The position numbers and the translations under genes were made by a program. Shown here one piece after another: positions 7,664 through 58,801 of a stretch of 64,000 bases of DNA. How positions within the stretch are numbered: the first letter of the stretch is position 1; each line of letters begins with the position of its first letter. Under the pieces are notes generated by a model. That model did not search any database and had not been told where the DNA came from. It saw nothing but the letters and a program-made list of their open reading frames with translations. Source of the DNA: Escherichia phage vB_EcoM_CRJP21; the sequence record OQ708376.1. One strand, 5' to 3'.

Positions 7664-8343
7664 TGAAAAAGAAATTAAATGAACAAGGCTTACGTCCGCA
7701 AGTTCTCAAAGATTTGATTCATCCTATCATTAGTGTTGATGAATATACTCCTAAAATTGAAGATAGTAATATTGTTATTATGTTTCAGGTACTTAACAAT
7801 TTTGATGCAGCATATGATTTATCTTCTTTTATTGAAAAATCACCTATTGATGTAGCTGATACAGAAGCAGCAGAAACACCAAATTTAGATGGTCGATATC
7901 AAGTTTATGTTGAAATGGAACGAAATGCCGAATTCCCTGAAAAACTTTTACGTTTAATTAAAACTATTGAAAATATTTGTCCAGACCCAGGTTGGAAAAT
8001 ACAACTATATGGTGTTAATGACCCAATCGATGTTGATTTTGAAGAAATACAGCAGAGAATTGATTTGGGTATTCCTAGTTCAATTAGTGAGTTCCTTGAT
8101 TATGCTGGTGTTTCAGTAATCAAAGAAGGAAACATGTTGACATTAAAAACAGCATATGGTAAATTACATTACAGTACTGGAAGCGGTTTTGTTTCAGAAA
8201 CATATGTGAAAAAGTTATTAAAGAATGATACACAATTAGACACTTCGCGTCTTAGTTCCATACTAGGGGAAAGCTATACAGTACTACGAAGTGGTGATCA
8301 ATATGTAATTGGAAGAAACGGGAAATATTTGGTGTTGCGATGA
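7663..8343 (+). CDS. Hypothetical protein (226 aa)
   Basis: ORF with start overlapping the upstream stop (TAATG). Confidence 0.55.
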   Translation: MKKKLNEQGLRPQVLKDLIHPIISVDEYTPKIEDSNIVIMFQVLNNFDAAYDLSSFIEKSPIDVADTEAAETPNLDGRYQVYVEMERNAEFPEKLLRLIKTIENICPDPGWKIQLYGVNDPIDVDFEEIQQRIDLGIPSSISEFLDYAGVSVIKEGNMLTLKTAYGKLHYSTGSGFVSETYVKKLLKNDTQLDTSRLSSILGESYTVLRSGDQYVIGRNGKYLVLR

Positions 8344-9158
8344 GAATTTTAAATATGCTTAAATCTCTTCACGAAACAACCAAATTACATCAGGATGAAA
8401 AGTATCGTCGCAGCCTTACTAAAGATTTAGCATGTCGTATGTATATGCGTAGATTTGAAATTTCAAGAATTGGTAAAGGCTGGGATGATGTAAATCGTGA
8501 AGACATTGATCCAGATGCAATTTTTAAAGCATACATGGCTAGAAAAGTTTTCATAAATGAAAAAACTTTTTATATTGATAGTGATAGAGAATTAGAAAAT
8601 AAATTTACAAAAGGTTTATGGAAGATATGGTGTGTTGAAGTATTCGGTGAAGTATTACCTGAGCCACCTGTTCCAGAAACTTATAAAGATTTAAAAAGTA
8701 TTTTTGATAATGAACATATACATTCAAATTTCTCATTATATGATACTGTGTCAGAAGCTGTATTTTATGGTGAGTTACATGGTCATAACAAATACTTTGA
8801 TAGTATGGTTAGTTTTGATTTGTTTTGTCACTTGCCTGGTGTATCAAGTTGGACATGTGACCAACACAGAGCAAGTAAGATTGATAAGCGAAAATTCTCG
8901 GCCCAAAGATTTATGCAAGTTGCTATGAGTATGTATAAACTTGATTATCTTGGTTGTCCAGAACCATATAAACATTTTTGGAAAGAAAGAGCACAAAAAT
9001 GTTTAAACTATTGTATAATCCGTTTAATGGACACATACATTCTTAAGTTTAGAAATGCAACTGTATACGACATGCCTGAACCACCAAAGAATGAAAAATA
9101 TCCACCTGTCAAGACATTTGTATGGTACAAGGATAAAAGTAACAAAAGGATGCACTAA
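8340..9158 (+). CDS. Hypothetical protein (272 aa)
   Basis: ORF overlapping the upstream stop by 4 nt. Confidence 0.55.
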   Translation: MRILNMLKSLHETTKLHQDEKYRRSLTKDLACRMYMRRFEISRIGKGWDDVNREDIDPDAIFKAYMARKVFINEKTFYIDSDRELENKFTKGLWKIWCVEVFGEVLPEPPVPETYKDLKSIFDNEHIHSNFSLYDTVSEAVFYGELHGHNKYFDSMVSFDLFCHLPGVSSWTCDQHRASKIDKRKFSAQRFMQVAMSMYKLDYLGCPEPYKHFWKERAQKCLNYCIIRLMDTYILKFRNATVYDMPEPPKNEKYPPVKTFVWYKDKSNKRMH

Positions 9159-9178
9159 GGTGCGTCCTTTTTTCTTTT
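9148..9178 (+). terminator. Intrinsic terminator
   Basis: GGATGCAC-TAAG-GTGCGTCC hairpin followed by TTTTTTCTTTT. Confidence 0.7.
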
Positions 9179-9184
9179 CAGGTG

Positions 9185-9213
9185 TTGACATGTGTAGTCG
9201 AAGTATGTACAAT
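9185..9213 (+). promoter_or_regulatory. Sigma-70-type early promoter
   Basis: TTGACA, 17 bp spacer, TACAAT. Confidence 0.5.
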
Positions 9214-9254
9214 ATCACCATAGCGTAAATTTTAATTGATTATGAGGTTTTATA

Positions 9255-10382
9255 ATGAAAGGTAAATATTTTTTCATTGAAAATGGCAAAGAAGTTGAGA
9301 TTCAAGAATTTAACTATAATTATGTACTGAACTCTTTATTGAAACAATATGACCGTTCATCAAACAAAAAATACATTTACAATGTAATTGTACGTCGCAC
9401 CTATGACTCGCTGGGTAATCCGTTATTTGATGTAAAAACTCTGTCATTAGATGAAATCTATTTTGATAATAAACGTCTGAAAGTTCTTGATTTAATGAAG
9501 GATAAAATTCATTTTAGTAATATTAGAATTGATCCTAACATGCCAGTACCGCCATTAGAGCGTGAATATCGTGAATGGAAAGAAGGTCGTGCCAAACCAC
9601 GTTTAGACTTGGTACAAACATCACCAGATGTACCTGCACCTATTGTTCTTAAGAAAAAACCTATCAACCCAGACGATAGCAGAATTGATGACATTGAAAG
9701 ATGGGTTGAATTCCCTAGTACTATTGAAAAGAATTCAGTAAAAGTACTAGACTGGTTTGTAAACTTACCAGTTTGTGCACAAGAAATTGGAACTAAGATT
9801 CAACAAATTTCAGAACGTCAATTGGATCTTAACTCAGCATTACAACAGCATAGTGATTATATTAGAATGCTTATGAATAACCTTACTGTTGCGTTGGAGA
9901 CGTTGTTCCCATTGAAGCCGACCTTTACACAGAAATTGTTTGGTAAAACTGATATCAAAGTGCAACCATCAGATTTGCCAAAAGTGATGAAAGCACTAAA
10001 TGAAGCAGTTAAGTATGACACTAATAAGTTTAGTGGTCTTAGTACGATGTTTTCAGAACTTAGAAACGAAGTTAATGAAATCAAAAATGAACTTGAATAT
10101 GGTAAGTTGGGTTGTGAATACGCACTACGTTGTGTGGATGATGCGTTTGAATATGAATTAACATTAGAACGTATTATGAAAATGGGAATCACCACCTCCA
10201 TGACTGAAACGAGCATTATTGCAACAAGTAAGCAATATCAAGTTGATATGAATCGTATGGTAGATATTCAAACTATTACTATTCCTTTGATTATCAATCG
10301 TTTACAATCACAGACAGGTAAAGCTGTGGATGAGAGTACTGTAGAAATTATTCGTAATCTGGCATATGGTAACAAAGAGTAA
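9255..10382 (+). CDS. Hypothetical protein (375 aa)
   Basis: Long ORF; no recognised motif. Confidence 0.6.
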   Translation: MKGKYFFIENGKEVEIQEFNYNYVLNSLLKQYDRSSNKKYIYNVIVRRTYDSLGNPLFDVKTLSLDEIYFDNKRLKVLDLMKDKIHFSNIRIDPNMPVPPLEREYREWKEGRAKPRLDLVQTSPDVPAPIVLKKKPINPDDSRIDDIERWVEFPSTIEKNSVKVLDWFVNLPVCAQEIGTKIQQISERQLDLNSALQQHSDYIRMLMNNLTVALETLFPLKPTFTQKLFGKTDIKVQPSDLPKVMKALNEAVKYDTNKFSGLSTMFSELRNEVNEIKNELEYGKLGCEYALRCVDDAFEYELTLERIMKMGITTSMTETSIIATSKQYQVDMNRMVDIQTITIPLIINRLQSQTGKAVDESTVEIIRNLAYGNKE

Positions 10383-10468: not shown

Positions 10469-11605
10469 ATGTCCGAGAAAGAAATCAATCCTAAAAAAGC
10501 ATCCACCGCAGCTAAATCAGCAAAACGCACTACTAAAACTGCGTCTAAAGGTCATACAATTGATGCAAGTGATATTTTTAACCAAACTACAAAATCACTA
10601 CCAGTACTGAAAGATGTTAAGGGAAATACTATGTCTCTAACAGTTCAAAACATCAATACTGTTGGTACAACTGCTGGTGCTGCTGTTGGGCGTTTGGCTG
10701 ATGAAATTATGTCTAAAGTTAATGTAACGGATGACAATACCGAGTTTGGTAAATCAATCACCACAATTCTTACGTTGACTCGTGCAGTTGATATTGACAG
10801 TCTTCAAGAAGATAAATCAATTGTTGGTCGTATTAAGAAATTCTTTGTTAATGCTCAACAGAAAGTAGGTGATCAGTACAAAAACAGTAAAGAGCAAATT
10901 GACGAAATTATGAAAACTCTTCAAACTGGTATTAATCGCCAGCACGGAGAATGTGAATGGCTTGATAAAGCATATAATGAAAACAAAGAATATTTGTTTG
11001 AATTACGTGATACATTAGTTGGTTTAGAAGAAGTAACTAAAACACAAGATGCATTATTATTAGAAATGCAAGCAGACAAAAATGTAGACTCTTTTGCTAT
11101 TCAAGAGCAAAAGATGATTTGTGAAGCACTTTCTAAACAAGAAGATAAGATTCGTCGTCTTATCATGATGTGCGAGCTAAGTGGTCCACGTTTGATGAGT
11201 ATGAAAAAAGTAAACTTGAACACTGTTTCTAAGTTTGAAGATTTAAAATCTGTTGTTATTCCAGCATGGAAGTCTCAATTGGCTGAACAGTTAATTTCCG
11301 AGCGTCAACGTAAGGATAATGAACTAGGCAATCTAATTGATAATGAGACAAACCGTCTTTTGGAAACTAACTCTAAAATGGTTGCAGCAAATATGTTGGA
11401 CGCAGCAAAGGCAAACAACCGTGGTATTGTGGATATTAAAACCTTGCGTAATGTACATAAAACGATGATTGACAGTATTGAAGCAGTTATTGAAGAAGAG
11501 AAAAAAGGCAAATTGGAACGTGAACGTGCTAAACAGGAAATTGCACAACTTTCCTATGAACTGGAAGACACTCTTCGTGAAATTGCCGAAAAAGCTAACA
11601 AGTAA
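10469..11605 (+). CDS. Hypothetical coiled-coil protein (378 aa) with Lys/Ala/Thr-rich N-terminus
   Basis: ORF with RBS AACGAGGAA; low-complexity N-terminal region; no family assigned. Confidence 0.6.
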   Translation: MSEKEINPKKASTAAKSAKRTTKTASKGHTIDASDIFNQTTKSLPVLKDVKGNTMSLTVQNINTVGTTAGAAVGRLADEIMSKVNVTDDNTEFGKSITTILTLTRAVDIDSLQEDKSIVGRIKKFFVNAQQKVGDQYKNSKEQIDEIMKTLQTGINRQHGECEWLDKAYNENKEYLFELRDTLVGLEEVTKTQDALLLEMQADKNVDSFAIQEQKMICEALSKQEDKIRRLIMMCELSGPRLMSMKKVNLNTVSKFEDLKSVVIPAWKSQLAEQLISERQRKDNELGNLIDNETNRLLETNSKMVAANMLDAAKANNRGIVDIKTLRNVHKTMIDSIEAVIEEEKKGKLERERAKQEIAQLSYELEDTLREIAEKANK

Positions 11606-11608
11606 TAG

Positions 11609-11637
11609 TTGACATATGAGTGCGTTTTTAATATAAT
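11609..11637 (+). promoter_or_regulatory. Sigma-70-type early promoter embedded in the terminator hairpin
   Basis: TTGACA, 17 bp spacer, TATAAT; the -10 box lies in the loop of the upstream terminator. Confidence 0.6.
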
Positions 11638-17664: not shown

Positions 17665-18093
17665 ATGAATATCGAACAAACTATCCGTGAACATTCTTTC
17701 TTCGCTCCAGAAACTGGTCGTGTTATTGAGAGCGTCAAAATCGAAGAACTAATGGTCAATGTTAAATACAAAGAACCAAATGATGAGATTAGCAGTACTT
17801 TTTGTGCTCTACGTGCACCATTCCGTAATGAAAAAGCTAAGAAACCAGCATATGTTCTTGCCATTGCACTGGGTTGTGTTGTAAAACTTGCAGTTGATGA
17901 AAATCTTCTGAATATTAAAGTTGCACCAAGCAATGACGATGAAAACATTGATTTGAACTTTGATGGTTCTCTTGATGAAGATGTATTTTTCCAACAGTCA
18001 CTTGTTTACGACTTCCGTACAGTGACACATTCTCACATCAAGTTCATTAATGAAATGGTTGAGATTGTTGCTGAATACGAAGAATCTCTCTAA
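17665..18093 (+). CDS. FFQxS-motif paralog family member
   Basis: Motif instance DEDVFFQQSLVYD near the C-terminus; RBS AAGGAA. Confidence 0.6.
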   Translation: MNIEQTIREHSFFAPETGRVIESVKIEELMVNVKYKEPNDEISSTFCALRAPFRNEKAKKPAYVLAIALGCVVKLAVDENLLNIKVAPSNDDENIDLNFDGSLDEDVFFQQSLVYDFRTVTHSHIKFINEMVEIVAEYEESL

Positions 18094-18103
18094 GTAAATA
18101 CAA

Positions 18104-18128
18104 AAGCCTCCATTATGGAGGCTTTTAT
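18104..18128 (+). terminator. Intrinsic terminator
   Basis: AGCCTCC-ATTAT-GGAGGCT hairpin followed by TTTTAT. Confidence 0.5.
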
Positions 18129-18146
18129 CACATAAGGAAATGAAAT

Positions 18147-18698
18147 ATGATAGACCAAATTAAAATCCTTACAAAGCAAATCACTGATTTTCTTTCTGAT
18201 AAAGATGGATTTAATACAGAAGTAAAAATGCACGGTGTTAGTGTTGATGTAATTGCACCAAATGGTAATGTAACAAGTTACGACATGTATGAATTACTTC
18301 TTTATACTCTAGCAGTACGTAAACTAGGTAGTGATATTGAACTCAATATCAATACTGATGAAAGTGGGAATAAAATTTTTGCAATCAACACCAGTGCTAA
18401 ATTCGATATCAGTACTGAAATTAAAAAAATAAATGAAAGTTTTATTGGCTTTAAGCATGAATCAATTCAAAGTGTTTTTATTGGAAAGCAAACTTCTAAT
18501 AGTGAATGCCCATATTGTGTAATGACTTTATATAAAGATGGAAACTGGATGCGTCAAGATTTAGTATTTGCTGAACTTCTGTATGCATTTACACATGAAC
18601 TTAAAATCGAATTGGACGATAGTGTTTATTGCTTTAAGAAAATTCGAAATATAACTAAAGATATACAAACCCAACTTAAAGAATTAAATGATAAATAA
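18147..18698 (+). CDS. Hypothetical protein (183 aa)
   Basis: ORF with RBS AAGGAAA. Confidence 0.55.
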   Translation: MIDQIKILTKQITDFLSDKDGFNTEVKMHGVSVDVIAPNGNVTSYDMYELLLYTLAVRKLGSDIELNINTDESGNKIFAINTSAKFDISTEIKKINESFIGFKHESIQSVFIGKQTSNSECPYCVMTLYKDGNWMRQDLVFAELLYAFTHELKIELDDSVYCFKKIRNITKDIQTQLKELNDK

Positions 18699-18814
18699 AT
18701 ATACCAGAAATGGTTAACATATCATGTTACTTTCCTCCCTTACATAATAATGATGCGTTATTATATTTTCATTTTGTTCTTATTCCCCTTTTGGTACAAA
18801 ATCATTTTAGTACT

Positions 18815-18840
18815 GCCCCGATCTTCGGGGCATTTTTCTT
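18815..18840 (+). terminator. Intrinsic terminator
   Basis: GCCCCGA-TCT-TCGGGGC hairpin followed by ATTTTTCTT. Confidence 0.6.
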
Positions 18841-18858
18841 ATCTAAAATTGAGGATAT

Positions 18859-19254
18859 ATGAAGAACAATATTGGAACTTCAATAATTAAACCACTTTCT
18901 TATTACCTTGAAAAATTTAGAAGCACAAATGGTAATAAATTTAATAATATATTTCAGTTCTCTCATAAAGAATATATTACAATTGATCATTTTTCAAAGA
19001 AACTAATGTATGTAAATGATAATAGTCATATTATTAAATTATCATTCGATATTGAGTTAGATAAATTAACATTTACGGAATACATTAATCAAAAAACTTC
19101 TTTTTTATGTCAATACAATAGGAAAGTATATAGTAATATTTCTATGTATCTAAATGATGAATATCACTTTCAACAATCTACAATAGAAGAAGTATTGTTC
19201 AGTACTGAAGAATTAAAAGAACTATATTACTGGTATAATTATTTCACATCTTGA
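18859..19254 (+). CDS. FFQxS-motif paralog family member
   Basis: Motif instance NDEYHFQQSTIEE; first gene of a six-gene tandem array. Confidence 0.6.
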   Translation: MKNNIGTSIIKPLSYYLEKFRSTNGNKFNNIFQFSHKEYITIDHFSKKLMYVNDNSHIIKLSFDIELDKLTFTEYINQKTSFLCQYNRKVYSNISMYLNDEYHFQQSTIEEVLFSTEELKELYYWYNYFTS

Positions 19255-19309
19255 CATTATTGTGGGTTTATCCTACAATACATGATGATGCTGCATTGAG
19301 GATAAATTT

Positions 19310-19720
19310 ATGAGTTTAGATTTACACAATGAACTAAAATATTTTTTAGATTTGGACATATCAGAATTGAACCACCACGTCAATCATATGACTAGTACTG
19401 TATGGTGGTCTAATGATCAAGACGACCCAATTATCCAACTAAGTGATGAATCGTCAATTATGCGATTTTATAAGATTAATTATAAAAAGAACATCAAGAT
19501 CACATATGTACCATACAAAAACATACTACTAGTCGAAACACTTAATCCAAGTTCTTTATTAAAAATCACCGATTTAGATACATTACAAACAAGTGAATCT
19601 TTATTCCAACGTTCATTAGTTGATGATCTTGGTGGTATTACTTTTGAAGATATATTACAATTGAAGAATATGTATAGTGAATTGTTGGAGATTAAAAACA
19701 CTTTAGTAATGGGGAATTGA
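19310..19720 (+). CDS. FFQxS-motif paralog family member
   Basis: Motif instance TSESLFQRSLVDDLGGITFEDI. Confidence 0.6.
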   Translation: MSLDLHNELKYFLDLDISELNHHVNHMTSTVWWSNDQDDPIIQLSDESSIMRFYKINYKKNIKITYVPYKNILLVETLNPSSLLKITDLDTLQTSESLFQRSLVDDLGGITFEDILQLKNMYSELLEIKNTLVMGN

Positions 19721-19721
19721 T

Positions 19722-20126
19722 ATGGTAAGTTTACTAGATATTGATAATACCAGTTTAGTGCTGGTGAAAAAAGGTTTAATTCCAAATTCTAAAAAAATTG
19801 ATTATGCTGTTATTGAAACAAATATTGGAAATATCTGGTACGACTCTGAAAGGGATATTGTGTTTAGCTGTGTAGACAGTGATCGTTCTGAATGTTGTAG
19901 AGTCGGTCATGACGGACAATTTGTTTTTGAATTTCGTTATTGGAAGGACGCAAAATTTCACCAAGAACTGGTTGCTTTGTCAAATGAACTATATACAGAA
20001 GAATCGTTCTTCATGGCTAGTACTATTAATGATTTTGGTTCAGTTACATTTGAGTACTATAAAAAAATATACGCACTATCCAGAGAAGTTATGAAAATTA
20101 TCAGAACTGCTGAAGGTAAAGAATAA
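19722..20126 (+). CDS. FFQxS-motif paralog family member
   Basis: Motif instance TEESFFMASTINDFGSVTFE. Confidence 0.6.
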   Translation: MVSLLDIDNTSLVLVKKGLIPNSKKIDYAVIETNIGNIWYDSERDIVFSCVDSDRSECCRVGHDGQFVFEFRYWKDAKFHQELVALSNELYTEESFFMASTINDFGSVTFEYYKKIYALSREVMKIIRTAEGKE

Positions 20127-20127
20127 C

Positions 20128-20505
20128 ATGACTACTATATATGATATTTTGGGTGTTCTGAGTAGAAATATAGATGATGATTTTGTTATTGTTCAAGATA
20201 CTAGAAATACATTTCAACTACCAATAGGTTCACCAGATAGGTTAATTTTTAATAGATACTCAAATGAACTAACTTACATCCATGATGGGATTGCAATTGT
20301 ATCAGTTTCTATAAACGACTATACAATACGATATGTATATGACTTCAACGATTATTGTACAAGAATCCACAGTATTGATATTTCCGAAGAGGAACTATTC
20401 CAATTGTCATTGATTGAGAAAAATGTAATAGGAATTACAGAAATTGGTATTATTAAAAAAGCATTAAACTATACAAATATAAGAATTAATGGTGGGTGCA
20501 GATGA
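20128..20505 (+). CDS. FFQxS-motif paralog family member
   Basis: Motif instance SEEELFQLSLIEKNVIGITE. Confidence 0.6.
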   Translation: MTTIYDILGVLSRNIDDDFVIVQDTRNTFQLPIGSPDRLIFNRYSNELTYIHDGIAIVSVSINDYTIRYVYDFNDYCTRIHSIDISEEELFQLSLIEKNVIGITEIGIIKKALNYTNIRINGGCR

Positions 20506-20957
20506 ATGTTGACGAAATAAAAAATCATTTTGAAATTGCAATGTCATGTGAATTTGACACACAACGTGTTCATGACCCGAAAGAACATATACGCATTTGT
20601 TGTGAATTGTCAGATGATTGTAATATTTTTATTGGAAAAACCTATGACATGATCGATCTTTCATGTATAGATCCATTGGAAAGAAAAACAAAATATTTAT
20701 ATCTGTACAACACAACATCAGATACGATTGCAATACAACTAATATCAACCACAACATCCCACAGTTATTATAACATAACTGAGGTTAGTAGTTTAACGTT
20801 AACCGAAGAAGGATTCTTTCAACAATCGCTTATTCGTGAAATTGGTGTTAGTTATGATGAGTTAAATGTATTAGTAGATTGTTTCGAAAAATTGAGTACT
20901 TTTGTATTATCCCTTTTTAATATACAGTCGCAAAATCCAATGGTGGTGAAATGCTAA
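20496..20957 (+). CDS. FFQxS-motif paralog family member
   Basis: Motif instance TEEGFFQQSLIREIGVSYDEL. Confidence 0.6.
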   Translation: MQMNVDEIKNHFEIAMSCEFDTQRVHDPKEHIRICCELSDDCNIFIGKTYDMIDLSCIDPLERKTKYLYLYNTTSDTIAIQLISTTTSHSYYNITEVSSLTLTEEGFFQQSLIREIGVSYDELNVLVDCFEKLSTFVLSLFNIQSQNPMVVKC

Positions 20958-21391
20958 ATCCAAGTAAATTTCTCCACTTACTTTCGATAACATCAATACC
21001 GGATCTTACCAGTGAAACTAATGAATATCGTGAAGCTGGGGTGGTGTCTATGGAACTCGATACATTTGACCACAAATGCTATGTGACATATGACCCACCG
21101 CGTTATGGTAAAGAACATTCTTCTTTTATTTTTGTATTCGTATACACTGTATATGATAATACAACACTTGATGATGTTTGTATTGACACTTACGAAATTT
21201 GTGATAATATCATAACTGATGACAACAATAACTCATTTGATATGTCACTATATAACACAGAAGAATCGTTGTTTCAACTTAGTACTGTTATTGATGCACC
21301 ATCATTAGAAGATATAAAACAATTTCAAGAACATCTTGACGCAGTTCGTGAGATGTTCTATAATCATTATCCAGAAGTAGAGTTCAATTAA
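20951..21391 (+). CDS. FFQxS-motif paralog family member
   Basis: Motif instance TEESLFQLSTVIDAPSLEDI. Confidence 0.6.
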   Translation: MLNPSKFLHLLSITSIPDLTSETNEYREAGVVSMELDTFDHKCYVTYDPPRYGKEHSSFIFVFVYTVYDNTTLDDVCIDTYEICDNIITDDNNNSFDMSLYNTEESLFQLSTVIDAPSLEDIKQFQEHLDAVREMFYNHYPEVEFN

Positions 21392-21405
21392 CTAAAGGTA
21401 ATAAG

Positions 21406-21666
21406 ATGACTAAAGTAGTTCGTAAACGCCACATGATGAACATGGATGAATTTCGTACATTTGACAAATATCGTACTATGTTTCGTATGCTTTCACAGGG
21501 CCGTCCAATCGTCATTGTAACAGAGAATTACATGTCACCTGAGATTATGTTTGGTAATTATGAAAAGGTCTTCATGTTGTACGTGAAGCGTGGATTACTT
21601 ACAATCAAGACATTAGCTGAAGCAACTGATGAAGATATGGATGGTGATAATACCTTTACCATGTGA
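21406..21666 (+). CDS. Hypothetical protein (86 aa)
   Basis: ORF with RBS AAAGGTAA. Confidence 0.5.
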   Translation: MTKVVRKRHMMNMDEFRTFDKYRTMFRMLSQGRPIVIVTENYMSPEIMFGNYEKVFMLYVKRGLLTIKTLAEATDEDMDGDNTFTM

Positions 21667-21675
21667 GGAAATATA

Positions 21676-21753
21676 TGTCTGAAAAGCCAAAAGAACCATT
21701 AGATCGTGATGATGATTTTTATGACGAACGATATGGAGATGATGATGAGTGAA
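21676..21753 (+). CDS. Small acidic peptide (25 aa)
   Basis: Strong RBS GAGGAAA then ATG; MSEKPKEPLDRDDDFYDERYGDDDE; below the ORF-track length cut-off. Confidence 0.3.
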
Positions 21754-21996
21754 CATAGTGCTGTGCTTAAAAAGATTTTAAAGGAACTTGATGGTGAGTT
21801 TAATGTCACAGAAGAAGAATATCAGCATTGGAAGAAAGGTTTTGAACAACTAACCGAGTATGATAAAGTGTTCAATATGATTGGTGTAATTAGCCAGTAC
21901 TTACTTGGTGGAGGACGTGCAAGTGCTTCAATTCTGGCATCTGCAATCATCTGTACATCACGATGGTGTGATGAAAAAAGTTTGGAAGATTTCTAA
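21745..21996 (+). CDS. Hypothetical protein (about 83 aa)
   Basis: ORF (track 21706..21996); start placed at ATG 21745, coupled to the stop of the preceding small ORF. Confidence 0.4.
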   Translation: MSEHSAVLKKILKELDGEFNVTEEEYQHWKKGFEQLTEYDKVFNMIGVISQYLLGGGRASASILASAIICTSRWCDEKSLEDF

Positions 21997-22011
21997 ATAA
22001 GATGCTATAAT
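21982..22011 (+). promoter_or_regulatory. Putative sigma-70-type promoter
   Basis: TTGGAA, 18 bp spacer, TATAAT upstream of the methyltransferase gene. Confidence 0.4.
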
Positions 22012-22048: not shown

Positions 22049-22909
22049 ATGAAACCTATCCGAGTACTTTCTCTTTTTAATGGAATGAGTGTGGGATATA
22101 TGGCATTGCAAGATGCTGGTATCCCAGTTGAAAAATATTATTCATCCGAAATTGACAAGTACGCAATAGCTGAATCTCAAGCTAACTTTCCTGATATTAT
22201 CCAATTGGGTGATGTAACTAAGTGGAGAGAATGGGATATTGAGTGGGATAAAATAGATTTATTAATGGGTGGTTTCCCATGTCAAGCCTGGTCAGTTGCA
22301 GGTAAACAGGGTGGTTTAAATGATATACGTGGGCAGTTATTTTTAGTAATGGTTGAAATTTTTGATCATATCAAAAGTCTCAATCCTAACTTGAAATTTC
22401 TGTTTGAAAATGTTAAAATGAAGGAAGATTTCAAAGAATACATTAATAGTATTTTAGGAATCACGCCAGTACTGATAAACTCCCAGCATTATACGCCTCA
22501 CTTCAGGCAGAGATATTACTGGTACAGTACTGATAAGCTTTTTATACCACCTGCATTATCCAATGCACCTAAACTTCAAGATATTATTGAAGATGGTTGG
22601 TACACTGACAGAACCGCTTCGTACTGTATAGATGCTAACTATTTTAAAGGTGGTGATTGTAACCAGTACTTTAATAAATCCAGACGACAATTGGTGTTTC
22701 GTGACCCAGTGATCAGTCGTCAATATCTATTAGAGAATGGCAAAAGAAATATTGACTATAGACACTTAAGTGTAGTAGAATGTTGTAAATTACAGGGTGT
22801 TCCTGAAGATTTCTTTAAAGTGTCTAGTAAGACACAAGCATACAAAATGCTTGGGAATGGATGGACTATGCCAGTTATATCACATTTACTAAGAGAGATA
22901 TTCTTTTGA
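22049..22909 (+). CDS. DNA (cytosine-5)-methyltransferase
   Basis: Motif I LFNGMSVG, motif IV GFPCQAWS (catalytic PCQ), motif VI FENV, motif VIII FRQRYYW, motif X LGNGWTMPV; 286 aa. Confidence 0.8.
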   Translation: MKPIRVLSLFNGMSVGYMALQDAGIPVEKYYSSEIDKYAIAESQANFPDIIQLGDVTKWREWDIEWDKIDLLMGGFPCQAWSVAGKQGGLNDIRGQLFLVMVEIFDHIKSLNPNLKFLFENVKMKEDFKEYINSILGITPVLINSQHYTPHFRQRYYWYSTDKLFIPPALSNAPKLQDIIEDGWYTDRTASYCIDANYFKGGDCNQYFNKSRRQLVFRDPVISRQYLLENGKRNIDYRHLSVVECCKLQGVPEDFFKVSSKTQAYKMLGNGWTMPVISHLLREIFF

Positions 22910-23397: not shown

Positions 23398-23420
23398 ATC
23401 CACGCATTGCGTGGATTTTT
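23398..23420 (+). terminator. Intrinsic terminator
   Basis: ATCCACGC-ATT-GCGTGGAT hairpin followed by TTTT. Confidence 0.65.
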
Positions 23421-23433
23421 CATAGGTGCATAT

Positions 23434-23949
23434 ATGCCAATTCCTTATGTTAAAATTATTAATAATATTCTCGATTCATGGGAAGATGTTATTACTGGTA
23501 AAAAGCAACCATCACCAGTACATGCTTTATCTGGGAAACTTCAATTCAGAATGTCAAACCAAACTGAAACATTTAATAATCATGATATTTGCATTACATT
23601 AAAAACACCTATTAGTATTGTAATTAAAAAAAATAAAGATGATGAATTGACATTATCTATTGGTCGTGATAAAATCATTTTAAGTAATTTGTCTGAAGAA
23701 GAATTCTTTCAAAGAAGTACTATTATCGATATGAAAGATTTCACATATGAATCATTGGTTGAACTCAATACACGTTTTAACGATATTCAGGAACGATTGC
23801 GACCAATTCTTCGTATCGAAGAAGAAGCCTGGATTGAAAGTATTAGGAAGATGCAAGAAATGTTGAAAGAAAATATTAACAATCTGGGTAAAGCTACAAT
23901 GGAATTTGGTAAAACTTTTAAACTGAACTTTTCAAAGGATCGTAAATGA
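23434..23949 (+). CDS. FFQxS-motif paralog family member
   Basis: Motif instance SEEEFFQRSTIIDMKDFTYESL; track start 23407 is TTG inside the terminator, so ATG 23434 was used. Confidence 0.55.
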   Translation: MPIPYVKIINNILDSWEDVITGKKQPSPVHALSGKLQFRMSNQTETFNNHDICITLKTPISIVIKKNKDDELTLSIGRDKIILSNLSEEEFFQRSTIIDMKDFTYESLVELNTRFNDIQERLRPILRIEEEAWIESIRKMQEMLKENINNLGKATMEFGKTFKLNFSKDRK

Positions 23950-24401: not shown

Positions 24402-24784
24402 TGAAATACAGCATTGAAGTACATTATACTACAGGGGACACTGAAAATTGTTATGACGTTCTTAATACAATTGATATTCAATGGTCTTCTAAAGAGGAAG
24501 CAGTTGCTGCTTTACAGTGCCTAAAAGAGCATTGGGTGTTTTATATGAAGCAAGATAATTGCTATACTAAAGAACACGAAACTATCGTTGAAAATGCTAA
24601 ACAAAAAGAGTGGTTTGACCCAATATCACCAGAATATTCATTCTTGGTTAAAGTTGGCGATGTGACAGTTCCATTACGAACACCGTGGAACGGCTACTTT
24701 GAAACTCTTCATAATGCACGAGTTGTCGCTGTTGATAATCCTGAGCAAATCGATTTCGATTCATTGGACTGGAAAAAACTATGA
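24401..24784 (+). CDS. Hypothetical protein (127 aa)
   Basis: ORF overlapping the upstream stop (TAATG). Confidence 0.5.
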   Translation: MKYSIEVHYTTGDTENCYDVLNTIDIQWSSKEEAVAALQCLKEHWVFYMKQDNCYTKEHETIVENAKQKEWFDPISPEYSFLVKVGDVTVPLRTPWNGYFETLHNARVVAVDNPEQIDFDSLDWKKL

Positions 24785-25224
24785 CAGTACTGCACCAATT
24801 GAAGAAGGTTAAGCATCCAGTTGTATACGAGGATTGGAAACGACAGAAGTTGATGGGTGATTTTTATTTCCCAAAATCTAAAGTTCTTGCGAATTCAAGA
24901 TGTACATATGTCACACATAATGATAAAGATACAGTATTTGTTGAAATGGGTTTCAATCCATCAAATACAATGTTCAGTACTAACCAGACATTTTACAAAT
25001 TTCATATCCAAAAAGATTCATTTTCTATCATGATTTTAAAACTTTTAGTTGAAGATCTGCTATACCGTGGTGAACGTGTTCCTTTATCATTAGTGGATAT
25101 TCCTTATGATAATTTAGAGGAAATGTACTTCCAACAGTTGACAGTACAAGAAAACTTTGGTATGATAGGACTTCAAGAGTTAGAGATGATTAAGCAAATT
25201 CGTGATATCTACTTTAAGGAGTAA
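24781..25224 (+). CDS. FFQxS-motif paralog family member
   Basis: Motif instance LEEMYFQQLTVQENFGMIGLQEL. Confidence 0.55.
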   Translation: MTVLHQLKKVKHPVVYEDWKRQKLMGDFYFPKSKVLANSRCTYVTHNDKDTVFVEMGFNPSNTMFSTNQTFYKFHIQKDSFSIMILKLLVEDLLYRGERVPLSLVDIPYDNLEEMYFQQLTVQENFGMIGLQELEMIKQIRDIYFKE

Positions 25225-25558: not shown

Positions 25559-25701
25559 TGGTATACACTAACATTTTTACTGGTATTATGCGTAAATTTA
25601 TTAATGGTACTGGATACGTATCTAATGACAACGGTAGTACATGGGTAAAAAATAATACGTCTGAATCTTTAGTAAAAAGTCTTCCGTATTATAAAGCTTG
25701 A
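25558..25701 (+). CDS. Small hypothetical protein (47 aa)
   Basis: ATG overlaps the upstream stop (TAATG); not in the ORF track. Confidence 0.35.
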   Translation: MVYTNIFTGIMRKFINGTGYVSNDNGSTWVKNNTSESLVKSLPYYKA

Positions 25702-25726
25702 CACATGAAAATGGAGTATATATAAT
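25698..25726 (+). promoter_or_regulatory. Sigma-70-type early promoter
   Basis: TTGACA, 17 bp spacer, TATAAT. Confidence 0.55.
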
Positions 25727-27904: not shown

Positions 27905-28193
27905 ACATGAAGTAATTCATTTTGATGATAAGATCTATATTCCAAATATTGATAGTACTGAAACATATTACCTAATCAATAAGATTATGGCTGAAACAAA
28001 TACGTGTTGTCGTCAACAGCCAGGAAAATATGAGTTCAGTCAGACTATTGGTTATTACCGATATGATATGTTAGAATCATTTACAATTGATAAGTCTAAA
28101 GTTATTGACATTCTTGTACAGAATGGATATAATGAACAACGTGTAAATAATACAGATTTACCAGTTTCAAAAATTGTTCTTTCTAATAATTAA
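27897..28193 (+). CDS. Hypothetical protein (98 aa)
   Basis: Track 27834..28193; start moved to ATG 27897, coupled to the upstream stop. Confidence 0.45.
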   Translation: MNKHEVIHFDDKIYIPNIDSTETYYLINKIMAETNTCCRQQPGKYEFSQTIGYYRYDMLESFTIDKSKVIDILVQNGYNEQRVNNTDLPVSKIVLSNN

Positions 28194-35824: not shown

Positions 35825-36250
35825 ATGACATACAACATTGTTAAAATGGTGAACTATGTATTAAAAAACAACGCATGGTCACTGCATGATGTACAATTAG
35901 AAGATATTGGTGAAGTTAGAGTATTTTGCTATGATCCAGATTTGAATCAAACCACAGATTTGAGTAAATGTTTTAATATTTTTCTTGGTTATGAATTCAA
36001 TAATCATTTTTATTCATTTGATGTGTATTTTGAAAAAGTTATATTCAGAAGTTATGAATGTGATAATGAAGATTATGATTATGATGATGAATCAATTGAA
36101 TTGAATGTTAACGATATTGATACTGAAGAAAAATTCTTCCAGTACTGCCTCCTTAACGACACATTAGGATTAACATTTGAGGACATTAAAGCTATACTTA
36201 AAGTTCAAAAGTTGATTCCAGAAGAGGTACTAAATCCATTAAATGACTAG
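35825..36250 (+). CDS. FFQxS-motif paralog family member
   Basis: Motif instance TEEKFFQYCLLNDTLGLTFEDI. Confidence 0.6.
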   Translation: MTYNIVKMVNYVLKNNAWSLHDVQLEDIGEVRVFCYDPDLNQTTDLSKCFNIFLGYEFNNHFYSFDVYFEKVIFRSYECDNEDYDYDDESIELNVNDIDTEEKFFQYCLLNDTLGLTFEDIKAILKVQKLIPEEVLNPLND

Positions 36251-36608
36251 TCTAATAGTACGTATAATGCAAGATGTTTGTAATAACCTTTATACAGGCA
36301 ATTTTGACGATCCGAACATAAAAATATTATGTTATGATGGTTTTACAATGGTACATCCATCCTATTCAAATAATATCTACGTAGCATATACAGGTGAAAA
36401 TCTATTGTATCAATTTGATATATATAGTACAATGACAAAGATAATTTTGGATGCCTCTAAACCAGCAATCTTTATTGCTTCTCATGATTACCATTACACT
36501 GAAGAATCACTATTTCAGTACTCAATGATTAATGACATTGGTGGGTTGACATTGGATGAGGTTAATGCTATACTAGCTGTCTCACGTTTGGTTAAAACCC
36601 ACAATTAG
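36243..36608 (+). CDS. FFQxS-motif paralog family member
   Basis: Motif instance TEESLFQYSMINDIGGLTLDEV. Confidence 0.6.
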   Translation: MTSLIVRIMQDVCNNLYTGNFDDPNIKILCYDGFTMVHPSYSNNIYVAYTGENLLYQFDIYSTMTKIILDASKPAIFIASHDYHYTEESLFQYSMINDIGGLTLDEVNAILAVSRLVKTHN

Positions 36609-45075: not shown

Positions 45076-45497
45076 GAGGCTATAATAAGATTTGTATTTT
45101 TGTATTTTTAGTTTGTGCATTCAATTCGTTTGGTTACTACTGTACAGAAAATAATATTTCATATGGTTTAAATCCTTTGTGGTTTACAATTTCCAATGTA
45201 GCACAAATTGGTATTGCTCTTATGTCTGCACTTATGTTCTGTCCAATTGTCACTATGGATACTGATCATGAAAGGCTTGGATTTCTCCGTGATACTGGAG
45301 ACGAACCTTACAGTAGATTGATTGTGTTGTATCCATTTATTGTTATTTTAGGTACTAACATCCAACTTGGGTCATTATCTAATAGTGTTACATCAGCAGC
45401 TATTGCTATATTTGCATTCACATTTTTTATGGTACACAAATCAGTACTTAATTGGTATATCACAAAAATGGCAGAAGAAGGTACTAAAAATACTTGA
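45072..45497 (+). CDS. Multi-pass membrane protein (141 aa)
   Basis: Several hydrophobic helices (ICIFVFLVCAF, IGIALMSALMFCPIV, LIVLYPFIVILG, AAIAIFAFTFFMV). Confidence 0.55.
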   Translation: MRGYNKICIFVFLVCAFNSFGYYCTENNISYGLNPLWFTISNVAQIGIALMSALMFCPIVTMDTDHERLGFLRDTGDEPYSRLIVLYPFIVILGTNIQLGSLSNSVTSAAIAIFAFTFFMVHKSVLNWYITKMAEEGTKNT

Positions 45498-45523
45498 CAT
45501 AATTTAGTATGTTATATATAATT
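45494..45523 (+). promoter_or_regulatory. Sigma-70-type promoter
   Basis: TTGACA, 18 bp spacer, TATAAT. Confidence 0.5.
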
Positions 45524-47088: not shown

Positions 47089-48054
47089 GTGAAAAAGCTT
47101 GATTTAAATACAATTGCCGAAGAAGTTCTGGATGAATGTTTTTCTAATGAAGAAGTCAACACACTAGAAGCCTTAGATTTCGTTGAAGATAAAGATGAAA
47201 ATGAAGGTAAAGTACAAAGCAGTTTCAAATATAATATTACACTTAAGCGACCACCAAATGTTTCCAATGAAGATCTAATTCGTGATATTCAAGCTGGTAT
47301 CAATGTAAAGAAAAACACTGAACTGTTAGTTCGTTACAATTATGGACTTATTATTGATGTAGCAAGTAAATGTACTTGTTATATCCCATTTGAAGATAAG
47401 ATTTCATATGGTGTTGAGGGGTTCATGAGAGCACTAAAAACCTTTGATCTTAATAAGAATGTGAAGTTCATTACCTATGCTTCTTCTAGTATTTACATGA
47501 CAGTTTATAACGAAAGTTCTGACGCTAACTATATGGTACACTTCCCACGTTATATGAGTGTTCATAAGATCAAAGTAAAAAGATTCTGTCAGGAATATAT
47601 GCGTAAACATGGTGTTCGCCCAACTCCTGAAATAATCTCAGAGGGTACTGGGATTGAGATTCAGCATGTTAATAACTGTTTGTTATTTCAAAGCGAATAC
47701 ACTTCTCTGGATGCACCATTAGACGGTGTTACCGATGGTACACTAGGTGACATTATTCATTCACCTGCTTCTGATTTTAACCTCAATGTTGATAGTATTC
47801 GTGCACCTTTACGTTATGCTATCAATGAACTGACTAACGAATTGAGTACTAAAGAACGTGAGATTATCCAGCGTGTTCATGGTCTAGGTGAATATGAACC
47901 TGAAACGCTTCGTGAGATTGCTGATAATGGTTTTGTTGATGATAATGGAAAATATGTTAAATCCCGTTCATCAATACACCGAAAGTACAGTGAAGCTATG
48001 CAAAAGCTTAAGAAGTTAGTACTTGCAAAAGGGTACGAATACGAAGATTTCTAA
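47089..48054 (+). CDS. Sigma-70-family RNA polymerase sigma factor
   Basis: Region 2-like LLVRYNYGLIIDVASK ... FEDKISYGVEGFMRALKTFD ... FITYASSSI and region 4-like LSTKEREIIQRVHGLGEYEPETLREIA ... SRSSIHRKYSEAMQKLKKL; GTG start behind AGGAG. Confidence 0.75.
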   Translation: MKKLDLNTIAEEVLDECFSNEEVNTLEALDFVEDKDENEGKVQSSFKYNITLKRPPNVSNEDLIRDIQAGINVKKNTELLVRYNYGLIIDVASKCTCYIPFEDKISYGVEGFMRALKTFDLNKNVKFITYASSSIYMTVYNESSDANYMVHFPRYMSVHKIKVKRFCQEYMRKHGVRPTPEIISEGTGIEIQHVNNCLLFQSEYTSLDAPLDGVTDGTLGDIIHSPASDFNLNVDSIRAPLRYAINELTNELSTKEREIIQRVHGLGEYEPETLREIADNGFVDDNGKYVKSRSSIHRKYSEAMQKLKKLVLAKGYEYEDF

Positions 48055-57999: not shown

Positions 58000-58221
58000 A
58001 TGAAATATATAGTACTTGTACTGATATTATTCAGTACTGTTGTAAGTGCTAAACAAAAAGAATATGTTAAATGTATAAATTATGAAGAGAAATATGTTGA
58101 AACATATAAAAAAAGTATAATTAAAAACGTTTCGATTACTAACAGAGCAACAATCATTGTACTTAAAAATGGGTTAATTATGCTATATAAACCACACGTT
58201 AAATGTGAAATTATTAATTGA
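58000..58221 (+). CDS. Small secreted protein (73 aa)
   Basis: Signal peptide MKYIVLVLILFSTVVSA. Confidence 0.5.
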   Translation: MKYIVLVLILFSTVVSAKQKEYVKCINYEEKYVETYKKSIIKNVSITNRATIIVLKNGLIMLYKPHVKCEIIN

Positions 58222-58228
58222 GGAAATT

Positions 58229-58801
58229 ATGAATCGTAAAGGTCGTTTTAAAGTATCAAAAAAGAACAAAAGTTCTAGGTTTAAACCTATTGTTTTAACA
58301 GTTAAATCTAACAAAGATTTAACTGCACTTAGTAAAAAGATAATTTCATCTAAGATTGAAGTATCATACGTAAATTCATTAAAATATATGAATGTCAAAC
58401 CACTGGACCAACTCATTTCACTTATATTTGAACGTAATGATTTTGAGATATCAGTAGATGATTATAGAGCCTATAATGCTGGTTTCATTAATGTTACTTG
58501 TAATAAAAAACTAACTGAGTTGGAAAATTTGTCATGTATAATAAATCTAGATAAAGGTGTTGTGAAGTACCATTTTGTACATTTCACTAATATCAATAAT
58601 GGAATGGGTGTACAATCCAGACCTATAGTGCCTACGTGTGATGTTACTAAATTAGCAAAGCTCAATGATGAAGAATATTTTCAAGAAAGCATTGTAACTG
58701 AGCATTTAGATGATATAATAGCTACTTACAAAGAATGCATATGGGTGTTGAATGCTATAAAACCTAAATTGTGTTTAATGAATATTGTTCGTGATTTATG
58801 A
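58229..58801 (+). CDS. FFQxS-motif paralog family member (divergent)
   Basis: Motif instance NDEEYFQESIVTEHLDDI; start moved to ATG 58229 behind TGAGGAAA. Confidence 0.5.
   Translation: MNRKGRFKVSKKNKSSRFKPIVLTVKSNKDLTALSKKIISSKIEVSYVNSLKYMNVKPLDQLISLIFERNDFEISVDDYRAYNAGFINVTCNKKLTELENLSCIINLDKGVVKYHFVHFTNINNGMGVQSRPIVPTCDVTKLAKLNDEEYFQESIVTEHLDDIIATYKECIWVLNAIKPKLCLMNIVRDL

Follow-up and report, generated by a model that had tools for sequence, protein, structure and literature searches.

Are the six consecutive small genes between positions 18859 and 21391 of a 64,000-nucleotide (nt) stretch of the Escherichia phage vB_EcoM_CRJP21 genome (OQ708376.1; the whole stretch is referred to as the window) a recent product of local duplication, or part of something larger? 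The original prediction, made from the letters of the window, described them as a tandem array of one FFQxS-motif family that arose by repeated local duplication and divergence and is bracketed by a terminator and the next unrelated gene. Our results partly support this interpretation, which was right in kind, as the genes are paralogues produced by duplication, and wrong in scale and tempo: with good support, the six genes belong to a very large family of paralogues, of which they form an old and strongly diverged part. All six open reading frames (ORFs) are present on the + strand with the lengths in Table 1, and their tight spacing is borne out, with a gap of 55 nt, two spacers of 1 nt each, and overlaps of 4 and 7 nt. 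The overlap of the fourth and fifth genes is 4 nt when the latter starts from ATG 20502 (151 amino acids, aa), as in the annotations of vB_EcoM_G17 (G17) and phAPEC6, and 10 nt when it starts from GTG 20496 (153 aa). Each product carries a Φ-F-[Q/M]-x-S element 27-45 residues from its C-terminus. In gene order these elements are HFQQS, LFQRS, FFMAS, LFQLS, FFQQS, and LFQLS, one member having Met instead of Gln.

Positions 18000-22000 of the window are 99.9% identical to G17 and Sharanji, 99.8% to 121Q and phAPEC6, and 99.5% to PBECO4. By these identities, the window is assigned to Asteriusvirus, a jumbo myovirus of coliphage type with genomes of ca. 350 kb. Its G+C content is 32-33%, and nearly all of its genes lie on the + strand. 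The array genes correspond to 121Q genes 83-88 and phAPEC6 gp132c-gp127c, and are annotated as hypothetical proteins in G17 and phAPEC6. About 83% of the genes in such 350-kb coliphages are without known function (PMC7247149).

Family membership was defined with a hidden Markov model (HMM) of the shared C-terminal module (ca. 45 residues), iterated on the 265 ORFs of the window; a member is a small protein that matches the module HMM with the module located 25-80 residues from the C-terminus. The converged model identifies 18 family genes in the window, all on the + strand. The six array members match with E values of 4e-7 to 4e-13 in the 265-ORF set, and those outside the array are 17665, 23407/23434, 23946, 24781, and eight more. 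In the complete near-identical genome OR844650 (1809 ORFs), the module HMM finds 52 members and a broader model 54-55, all of them on the coding strand. By comparison, neither the 849 ORFs of the opposite strand nor reversed or shuffled ORFs gave any hit. The family thus makes up ca. 9% of about 620 non-overlapping ORFs of OR844650, i.e. about one gene in 11. Its members there form two main clusters, one being that of the window, plus three scattered copies. The second cluster, outside the window, is denser and has about 34 members in 28 kb. The proteins are small (ca. 105-220 aa) and mostly acidic, with a median isoelectric point of 4.8, and no obvious signal peptide or membrane segment was seen in the member sequences read by eye. 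As to the proposed boundaries of the array, the upstream one is real: a stem-loop at 18814-18832 (TGCCCCGATCTTCGGGGCA) is followed by a T-run, and G17 annotates a terminator at the same place. The array is, however, not a unit, as its genes belong to a family with about 55 members. Downstream, the unrelated stretch comprises only four genes, after which family members appear again.

The family signature lies ca. 30-45 residues from the C-terminus and has the consensus [TS]-E-E-x-[FYL]-F-[QM]-x-S-[TL]-[VI]-x-D; next come Φ-[TS]-x-[ED]-[ED]-Φ and a helix some 20 residues long. In the strict form [DE][DE]xxF[QM]xS[TLM][VIL], the motif occurs 13 times in the window ORFs, compared with 0.002 occurrences expected from 1000 residue shuffles. 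Among the 52 genomic copies, the Phe is invariant (52/52), Gln is found in 47, Ser in 45, and Asp, Asn, or Glu together in 40. The codons at these residues vary freely. Phe is encoded by TTT in 29 copies and TTC in 23, Gln by CAG in 26 and CAA in 21, and Ser by AGT in 24, AGC in 6, TCA in 10, and TCG in 3. As synonymous codons are mixed, and Ser is encoded by both AGY and TCN codons, the motif is constrained at the protein level.

We then inspected how the six genes are related to each other. BLASTP similarity among their products is weak (E from 1e-3 to >1) and confined to the C-terminal 20-55 residues, and the identities in a MAFFT alignment are 13-25%. Beyond the short motif, pairwise comparison finds similarity only in the form of the ca. 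45-residue C-terminal module, which has shuffle z-scores of 1.0 to 10.1; this comes close to the lack of similarity outside the motif that would point to motif convergence rather than duplication. Full-length profiles of orthologue groups are more sensitive. With HHalign they match with probabilities up to 89% within the six and up to 95% with flanking members (P down to 3e-8), and for some pairs the full-length alignments are colinear, covering 106 columns for 19310 against 19722 and 79 columns for 17665 against 23434. At the DNA level, the only repeats in the array are the 39-nt motif-coding stretches (64-77% identity), and no long DNA repeats or gene conversion were found inside it. Genome-wide, the nearest paralogue is the adjacent member for 11 of 55 members, whereas 2.0 such cases are expected and 2000 permutations gave no more than 9. 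For each of the six array genes, the nearest paralogue lies outside the array. The second cluster, for its part, holds copies that are alike at the DNA level, and its recent paralogues are similar over their full length with alignment scores of 175-491. A megablast with the region 280,000-284,000 of OR844650 matches three sites in each of the listed Asteriusvirus genomes, and hence some members of the second cluster are recent duplicates; the protein alignment score of m283870 against m282464 from this region is 491.

The excess of adjacent nearest paralogues and the DNA-level copies of the second cluster are the reasons for regarding tandem duplication as the mode of family growth, and we infer that the family grew by duplication of whole genes in tandem. 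As for the array itself, similarity is weak and C-terminal only, no nearest paralogue lies within it, and DNA identity is low; any duplication in it is therefore ancient. Hence, the proposed local duplication and divergence stands as an account of the paralogues and their mode of growth, but not as a recent or ongoing process in the array. The segment appears to have been duplicated before Asteriusvirus and the Rak2-type phages split, and each copy would since have been retained as its own orthologue under purifying selection.

The selection and array-length comparisons that the prediction had proposed bear on this history. All six genes have 1:1 orthologues in TH47, a diverged Escherichia phage of Asteriusvirus, with 49-84% aa identity and ratios of nonsynonymous to synonymous substitution rates (dN/dS) of 0.15-0.45, which indicates purifying selection. 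Neighbouring genes outside the family have 77-98% identity to TH47 and dN/dS of 0.04-0.33. When pooled, dN/dS is 0.28 for the N-terminal region and 0.19 for the C-terminal module. The 17665-like gene and the Dcm methylase delimit the syntenic array, which has six members here, four in a Klebsiella Rak2-like genome, and ten in a 78-kb metagenomic contig. Motif context in the Klebsiella array gives clear counterparts of 19310, 19722, 20128, and 20496, the counterpart of the first of these (19310..19720) being a positional orthologue, and at least four of the six array genes have positional orthologues in Rak2-type Klebsiella phages. In the syntenic array of Rak2-type phages (K64-1, Muenster) and metagenomic relatives, a PTH2 peptidyl-tRNA hydrolase gene lies beside the 19722..20126 orthologue; it is absent from the array of the window. 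In the Salmonella phages SD-1_S14 and SD-6_S16, the 19722..20126 orthologue is truncated, with 105 aa in one and 91% query coverage in the other. As the genomes of these two phages are also 30-40 kb shorter, the array is eroding in some lineages.

The module profile retrieved 172 clusters (50%-identity representatives) at E <= 1e-3 from 1.84 billion proteins. The listed representatives are small proteins with a median of 140 aa and the module near the C-terminus, and the motif is explicit in 145 of 148 new sequences. Their architecture is constant in more than 200 sequences, consisting of 85-120 residues, the module, and the protein end. Ten sampled relatives come mostly from metagenomic assemblies, with contigs of up to 361 kb. 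Among cultured phages, tblastn with two members found Escherichia and Salmonella Asteriusvirus and Klebsiella Rak2/K64-1, with more distant matches in Salmonella Munch and SE_PL, Klebsiella fENko-Kae01, and Erwinia Hallingskeid. The best conserved member, 17665..18093, is 48% identical to its Rak2/K64-1 counterpart and has weaker matches in Salmonella Munch, SE_PL, and Erwinia Hallingskeid. A full-length paralogue alignment searched against 5.8 billion sequences retrieved 19 close orthologues only, because such a profile is weak against a database of this size. A family range covering Asteriusvirus and other Rak2-like jumbo phages of Enterobacterales is well supported.

The product of 19722..20126 was modelled with AlphaFold2 as a compact single domain, with a predicted local distance difference test score (pLDDT) of 93 and a predicted template-modelling score (pTM) of 0.84. 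According to DSSP, the model has short helical turns at residues 4-11, seven β-strands within residues 13-87, and helices at residues 93-102 and 110-130. The predicted domain thus starts with a short helical turn, continues with an antiparallel β-meander of seven strands, and ends with two helices at the C-terminus. The helix 93-102 is the motif EESFFMASTI. We infer a structural role for the motif. It would form the first C-terminal helix, with [TS]-E-E-E as the helix N-cap and start signal; the invariant Phe together with the hydrophobic residues at -1, +4, and +5 would make up the face packing on the sheet, and Φ-[TS]-x-[ED]-[ED]-Φ would cap the second helix. The motif may thus be a retained structural keystone of a domain whose β-sheet has diverged past sequence recognition.

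A Foldseek search of the PDB with this model returned nothing at E <= 1e-3, with recurrent weak matches to p32/gC1qR. Against BFVD, only the Rak2 orthologue gave a strong match (TM score 0.88, 30% identity), with weaker ones in related phages such as GAP32. p32 is composed of an N-terminal helix, seven consecutive antiparallel strands, and two C-terminal helices. The model and the MAM33/p32/gC1qR proteins, an acidic mitochondrial matrix family, therefore have the same α-β7-α-α order of elements, and the phage proteins are likewise acidic. They are, however, ca. 60 residues shorter and without sequence similarity to MAM33/p32: ten members have no match to PF02330 at E <= 1, and no significant superposition was found (Foldseek E 0.04-0.2, TM score ca. 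0.3). The polo-box domain (PF00659) has neither a sequence match nor a significant fold match. Polo boxes (those of the Plk1/Cdc5 polo-box domain, the Plk4 cryptic polo box, and PB3) bind proteins and peptides and, like the phage model, consist of an antiparallel sheet against one side of which a helix packs. In contrast to the phage model, they have six strands and one helix; they are eukaryotic and have no motif in common with the phage family. The polo-box and p32/Mam33 folds are weak structural analogues of the modelled member.

Database searches place the six proteins in families without giving them a function. No family member scores above the curated or gathering thresholds of Pfam-A, NCBIfam, or PADLOC, and a sequence search of the PDB with the members gave no match. 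A Pfam scan of the ten longest database relatives gave no match either, so no informative domain fusion was found. In PHROGs, each of the six matches one family over its full length with E values of 1e-73 to 1e-105. These families (phrog_33313, 24941, 24510, 36084, 30841, and 30548) are all of unknown function. PHROGs splits the family into one group per orthologue, and the groups are linked only by weak cross-matches of the C-terminal module. The phAPEC6 counterparts gp127c-132c, together with gp134c, are absent from the 62 virion proteins detected by electrospray ionization tandem mass spectrometry (PMC7247149, Table 1).

As for transcription, a candidate σ70-like promoter falls in the 55-nt gap between members 1 and 2, where it overlaps the stop codon of member 1. 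A near-consensus promoter at this position makes it probable that the six genes are not a single operon. Across the window, the pattern TTGACA-N16-18-TAnnnT has 26 sites, all on the coding (+) strand, compared with 7.4 +/- 2.8 expected on both strands; examples are 9185-9213, 11609-11637, 19251-19279, 25698-25726, 28105-28133, and 45494-45522. This excess on the coding strand suggests that host σ70 RNA polymerase transcribes the region over its whole length. The family products would be non-virion proteins, probably transcribed early by the host enzyme. Each paralogue may act as a stoichiometric binding module whose variable sheet surface is directed at a different target of the host or of a competing element, a role that would be comparable to that of the multigene families with which large DNA viruses take over the host and counter its defences.

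Taken as a whole, the best explanation is that ancient tandem duplication produced a set of early host-interaction binding proteins with paralogue-specific targets, to which we assign a probability of about 0.5. Several points weigh against it. A confident model is available for one member only, and the AlphaFold2 input for that member (35 orthologues and paralogues in all) had paralogues in the alignment. The model of 20951..21391 is of low confidence (pLDDT 55.7), with strands followed by two helices. A fold common to the six is suggested by size, architecture, and colinear profile alignments, and the assignment of motif residues as buried or exposed comes from helical periodicity and capping rules. 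None of Pfam, NCBIfam, PADLOC, the PDB sequence search, and PHROGs assigns a function, the evidence for early expression consists of consensus promoter matches, and at the level of whole genes dN/dS stays below 1, with no sign of an arms race. In addition, the N-terminal regions of the six, with the module removed, show no similarity by any of the methods applied: phmmer and iterated HMMs recover only their own orthologues, hhalign gives no significant match (best P 0.0024 over 36 comparisons), and the shuffle z-scores are -1.7 to 2.3. Together with the C-terminal confinement of the BLASTP similarity, these results are what would be expected if a two-helix C-terminal module of ca. 45 residues had been joined repeatedly to unrelated N-terminal regions by recombination at the motif or by convergence, so that only the tails of the six would be related, and the N-terminal data do not formally separate such sharing from whole-gene duplication. 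Nevertheless, we regard module sharing as unlikely. The architecture does not vary among more than 200 sequences; both helices belong to one compact domain with the sheet in the confident model; anchored profile alignments of several pairs reach colinearly into the N-terminal region; the recent paralogues of the second cluster are similar over their full length; and the motif DNA is too dissimilar between copies to drive homologous recombination.

An explanation of comparably low probability gives the motif a function in the recognition or docking of a single common partner. The family members would be adaptors whose variable β-sheet captures different targets and whose conserved helix delivers these to one machine of the phage or host, e.g. 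a protease, a chaperone, or a modifying enzyme; in a variant, the motif would be a processing site. The polar residues E-E, Q, and S are held at 87-100%, which goes beyond the needs of hydrophobic packing, and the strong conservation of E-E, Q, S, and D may stem from binding in common and not from structure alone. This is countered by the prediction of the motif as an ordered helix in a folded domain (pLDDT >90) rather than a flexible peptide, by the fact that [TS]-E-E-E and [TS]-x-x-[ED] are ordinary helix caps, and by the failure to identify a candidate partner. Two particular peptides were considered. E-x-x-[YF]-F-Q-x-S is superficially like 3C/TEV-type sites, and Q-x-S-[TL]-[VI] is similar to the QL[SD]LF type of β-clamp-binding peptide. 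A TEV/3C-like cleavage site was rejected since the Ser is two residues after the Gln, not at P1', and the context is an ordered helix. The β-clamp-binding peptide was rejected since Leu follows Gln in only 9 of 52 copies, the last position is Val, Ile, Leu, or Met and never Phe, and the helix is again ordered. Slightly less probable still is a hub-and-spoke arrangement, in which the invariant helix would dock to one machine of the phage or host while the hypervariable sheet of each paralogue captures a different host protein; if true, the phage would use a library of modules with different specificities to neutralise or re-route host factors and defence proteins wholesale, a fold family and a strategy undescribed in phages. 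A role as virion, inner-body, or ejected proteins, like the paralogous inner-body families of phiKZ-type phages, is far less probable than either. Small acidic internal proteins do form paralogous families in other jumbo phages. Moreover, phAPEC6 capsids contain an inner-body rod (PMC7247149). The absence of gp127c-132c and gp134c from the detected virion proteins speaks against such a role, and no protein between gp348 and gp548 was detected either, a range in which the second cluster would fall by coordinate interpolation. The genes also lie among σ70-like promoters in a region with replication genes. Hardly any weight can be given to the idea that the repeat is a DNA or RNA signal with the protein motif as a by-product. 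A 39-nt direct-repeat family does coincide with the motif, but the free codon variation at conserved residues effectively refutes this idea, and the DNA copies are only 64-77% identical.

The expansion of gene families in jumbo phages is a known phenomenon. The Rak2 paper describes ca. 10% of gene products as paralogues (PMC3622015), the CBB paper lists 22 paralogous ORFs, and an array of '>30 very similar genes' has been mentioned for 121Q (PMC5646251). The motif, membership, fold, or distribution of the family described here is not in the Rak2, CBB, or Hua et al. papers, of which the Rak2 and Hua et al. papers devote one sentence each to the subject. The passages of a large comparative jumbo-phage study found by term search do not mention the family, and searches of the literature on Asteriusvirus, Rak2, and jumbo phages found only generic remarks on paralogues and tandem arrays. 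The tandem arrays of Hua et al. and Rak2 are from the same phage lineage and carry the same idea of growth by tandem duplication of small genes. Unlike the 'very similar' genes of Hua et al., the six genes here are recognisable only via the 45-residue module. Outside this lineage, the host-range families of poxviruses diversify by 'accordion' duplication (cited in PMC13359090), and Bacillus phage G has a zinc-ribbon expansion of ca. 35 copies (PMC7824862). The multigene families of large DNA viruses and the present family have in common that they are lineage-specific arrays of small accessory proteins whose copy number varies (here 4, 6, and 10). In contrast to the 'accordion' families, the array copies here are ancient and stably inherited, not recently amplified, with dN/dS below 1.

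The family itself is uncharacterised and is covered by no curated model, and no solved structure is significantly related to its fold. With its signature, about 55 'hypothetical proteins' per genome become a single class that can be tested. For this class there is a structural model of high confidence, a helix whose sharp conservation makes it a target for mutation, and natural variation in copy number. The family is conserved in Rak2-like phages of the hosts Escherichia, Salmonella, Klebsiella, and Erwinia, as well as in many metagenomic relatives. If the members are host-takeover or counter-defence binders, they would provide many inhibitors of E. coli proteins and a phage example of genome growth by the expansion of gene families. 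If they are not, the finding is still corrected, in that the array is an old part of a dispersed family and not an active hotspot of local duplication.

Table 1. Family members and other features of the window, with the evidence for each.
Feature	Position	Strand	Evidence or remark
Intrinsic terminator, 8-bp GC-rich stem, 3-nt loop, T-run	18814..18842	+	Scan and G17 annotation
Candidate σ70-like promoter, TTGACA-17-TACAAT, near-consensus	19251..19279	+	Consensus match only
Family member 1, 131 aa, motif LNDEYHFQQSTIEE	18859..19254	+	Full-length match to phrog_33313; TH47 orthologue 73% aa identity, dN/dS 0.16
Family member 2, 136 aa, TSESLFQRSLVDD	19310..19720	+	TH47 orthologue 67% identity, dN/dS 0.31
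Family member 3, 134 aa, TEESFFMASTIND	19722..20126	+	Confident structure model; dN/dS 0.15
Family member 4, 125 aa, SEEELFQLSLIEK	20128..20505	+	TH47 orthologue 66% identity, dN/dS 0.45
Family member 5, 151 aa (153 aa from GTG 20496), TEEGFFQQSLIRE	20502..20957	+	TH47 orthologue only 49% identity, dN/dS 0.29
Family member 6, 146 aa, TEESLFQLSTVID	20951..21391	+	dN/dS 0.21
Best conserved family member, 142 aa, LDEDVFFQQSLVYD	17665..18093	+	Just upstream of array; module HMM
Family member with basic C-terminal helical extension, 180 aa from TTG 23407 (G17 start 23434)	23407..23949	+	Module HMM
Family member, 151 aa	23946..24401	+	Module HMM
Family member, 147 aa, EEMYFQQLTVQE, Ser replaced by Leu	24781..25224	+	Module HMM
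Family member, 167 aa	30603..31106	+	Module HMM
Family member, 117 aa	33522..33875	+	Module HMM
Family member, 141 aa	35825..36250	+	Adjoins 36243..36608; mutual nearest paralogues
Family member, 121 aa	36243..36608	+	Mutual nearest paralogue of 35825..36250
Family member, 142 aa	37737..38165	+	Module HMM
Family member, 151 aa	38113..38568	+	Module HMM
Family member, 172 aa	52674..53192	+	Module HMM
Family member, 198 aa, basic N-terminal extension	58205..58801	+	Module HMM
TelA-like protein	10469-11605		
Phage-encoded σ70-family sigma factor (regions 2, 3, and 4)	47089-48054		
Sole long - strand gene of the window, 384 aa	41138-42292	-	No Pfam match

Other products encoded in the window include a topoisomerase subunit, a gp44-like clamp loader, a TelA-like protein, a Dcm methylase, and a σ70-family sigma factor. 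The Dcm methylase gene (22049-22909, 286 aa) is without the intein of its TH47 orthologue, a 629-aa ORF (8064-9953 of the TH47 locus) whose intein has Hint and LAGLIDADG homing-endonuclease domains. Directly 3' of 17665..18093, a hairpin with a 13-bp stem (AAAGCCTCCATAATGGAGGCTTT) is located at 18100-18128. The scan placed it on the - strand and G17 annotates a + strand terminator, and it may be bidirectional.

Two further expansions are found in OR844650. A second, unrelated paralogous family of about 25 mostly contiguous genes encodes proteins of 63-104 aa (ca. 75 aa) with an 'LGTNYQE-x-YV' motif. It is located at 295,140-300,897, with outliers at 279.6 and 293 kb, and adjoins the larger cluster of the FFQxS family. 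The remark on the 121Q array may refer to that cluster, or equally to the LGTNYQE family beside it. A third expansion at 327,418-345,698 consists of 16 BLAST-linked genes with a median product length of ca. 381 aa, which are probably the ca. 41-kDa 'DNA condensation proteins' gp003-010 and gp549-551 of phAPEC6 virions.

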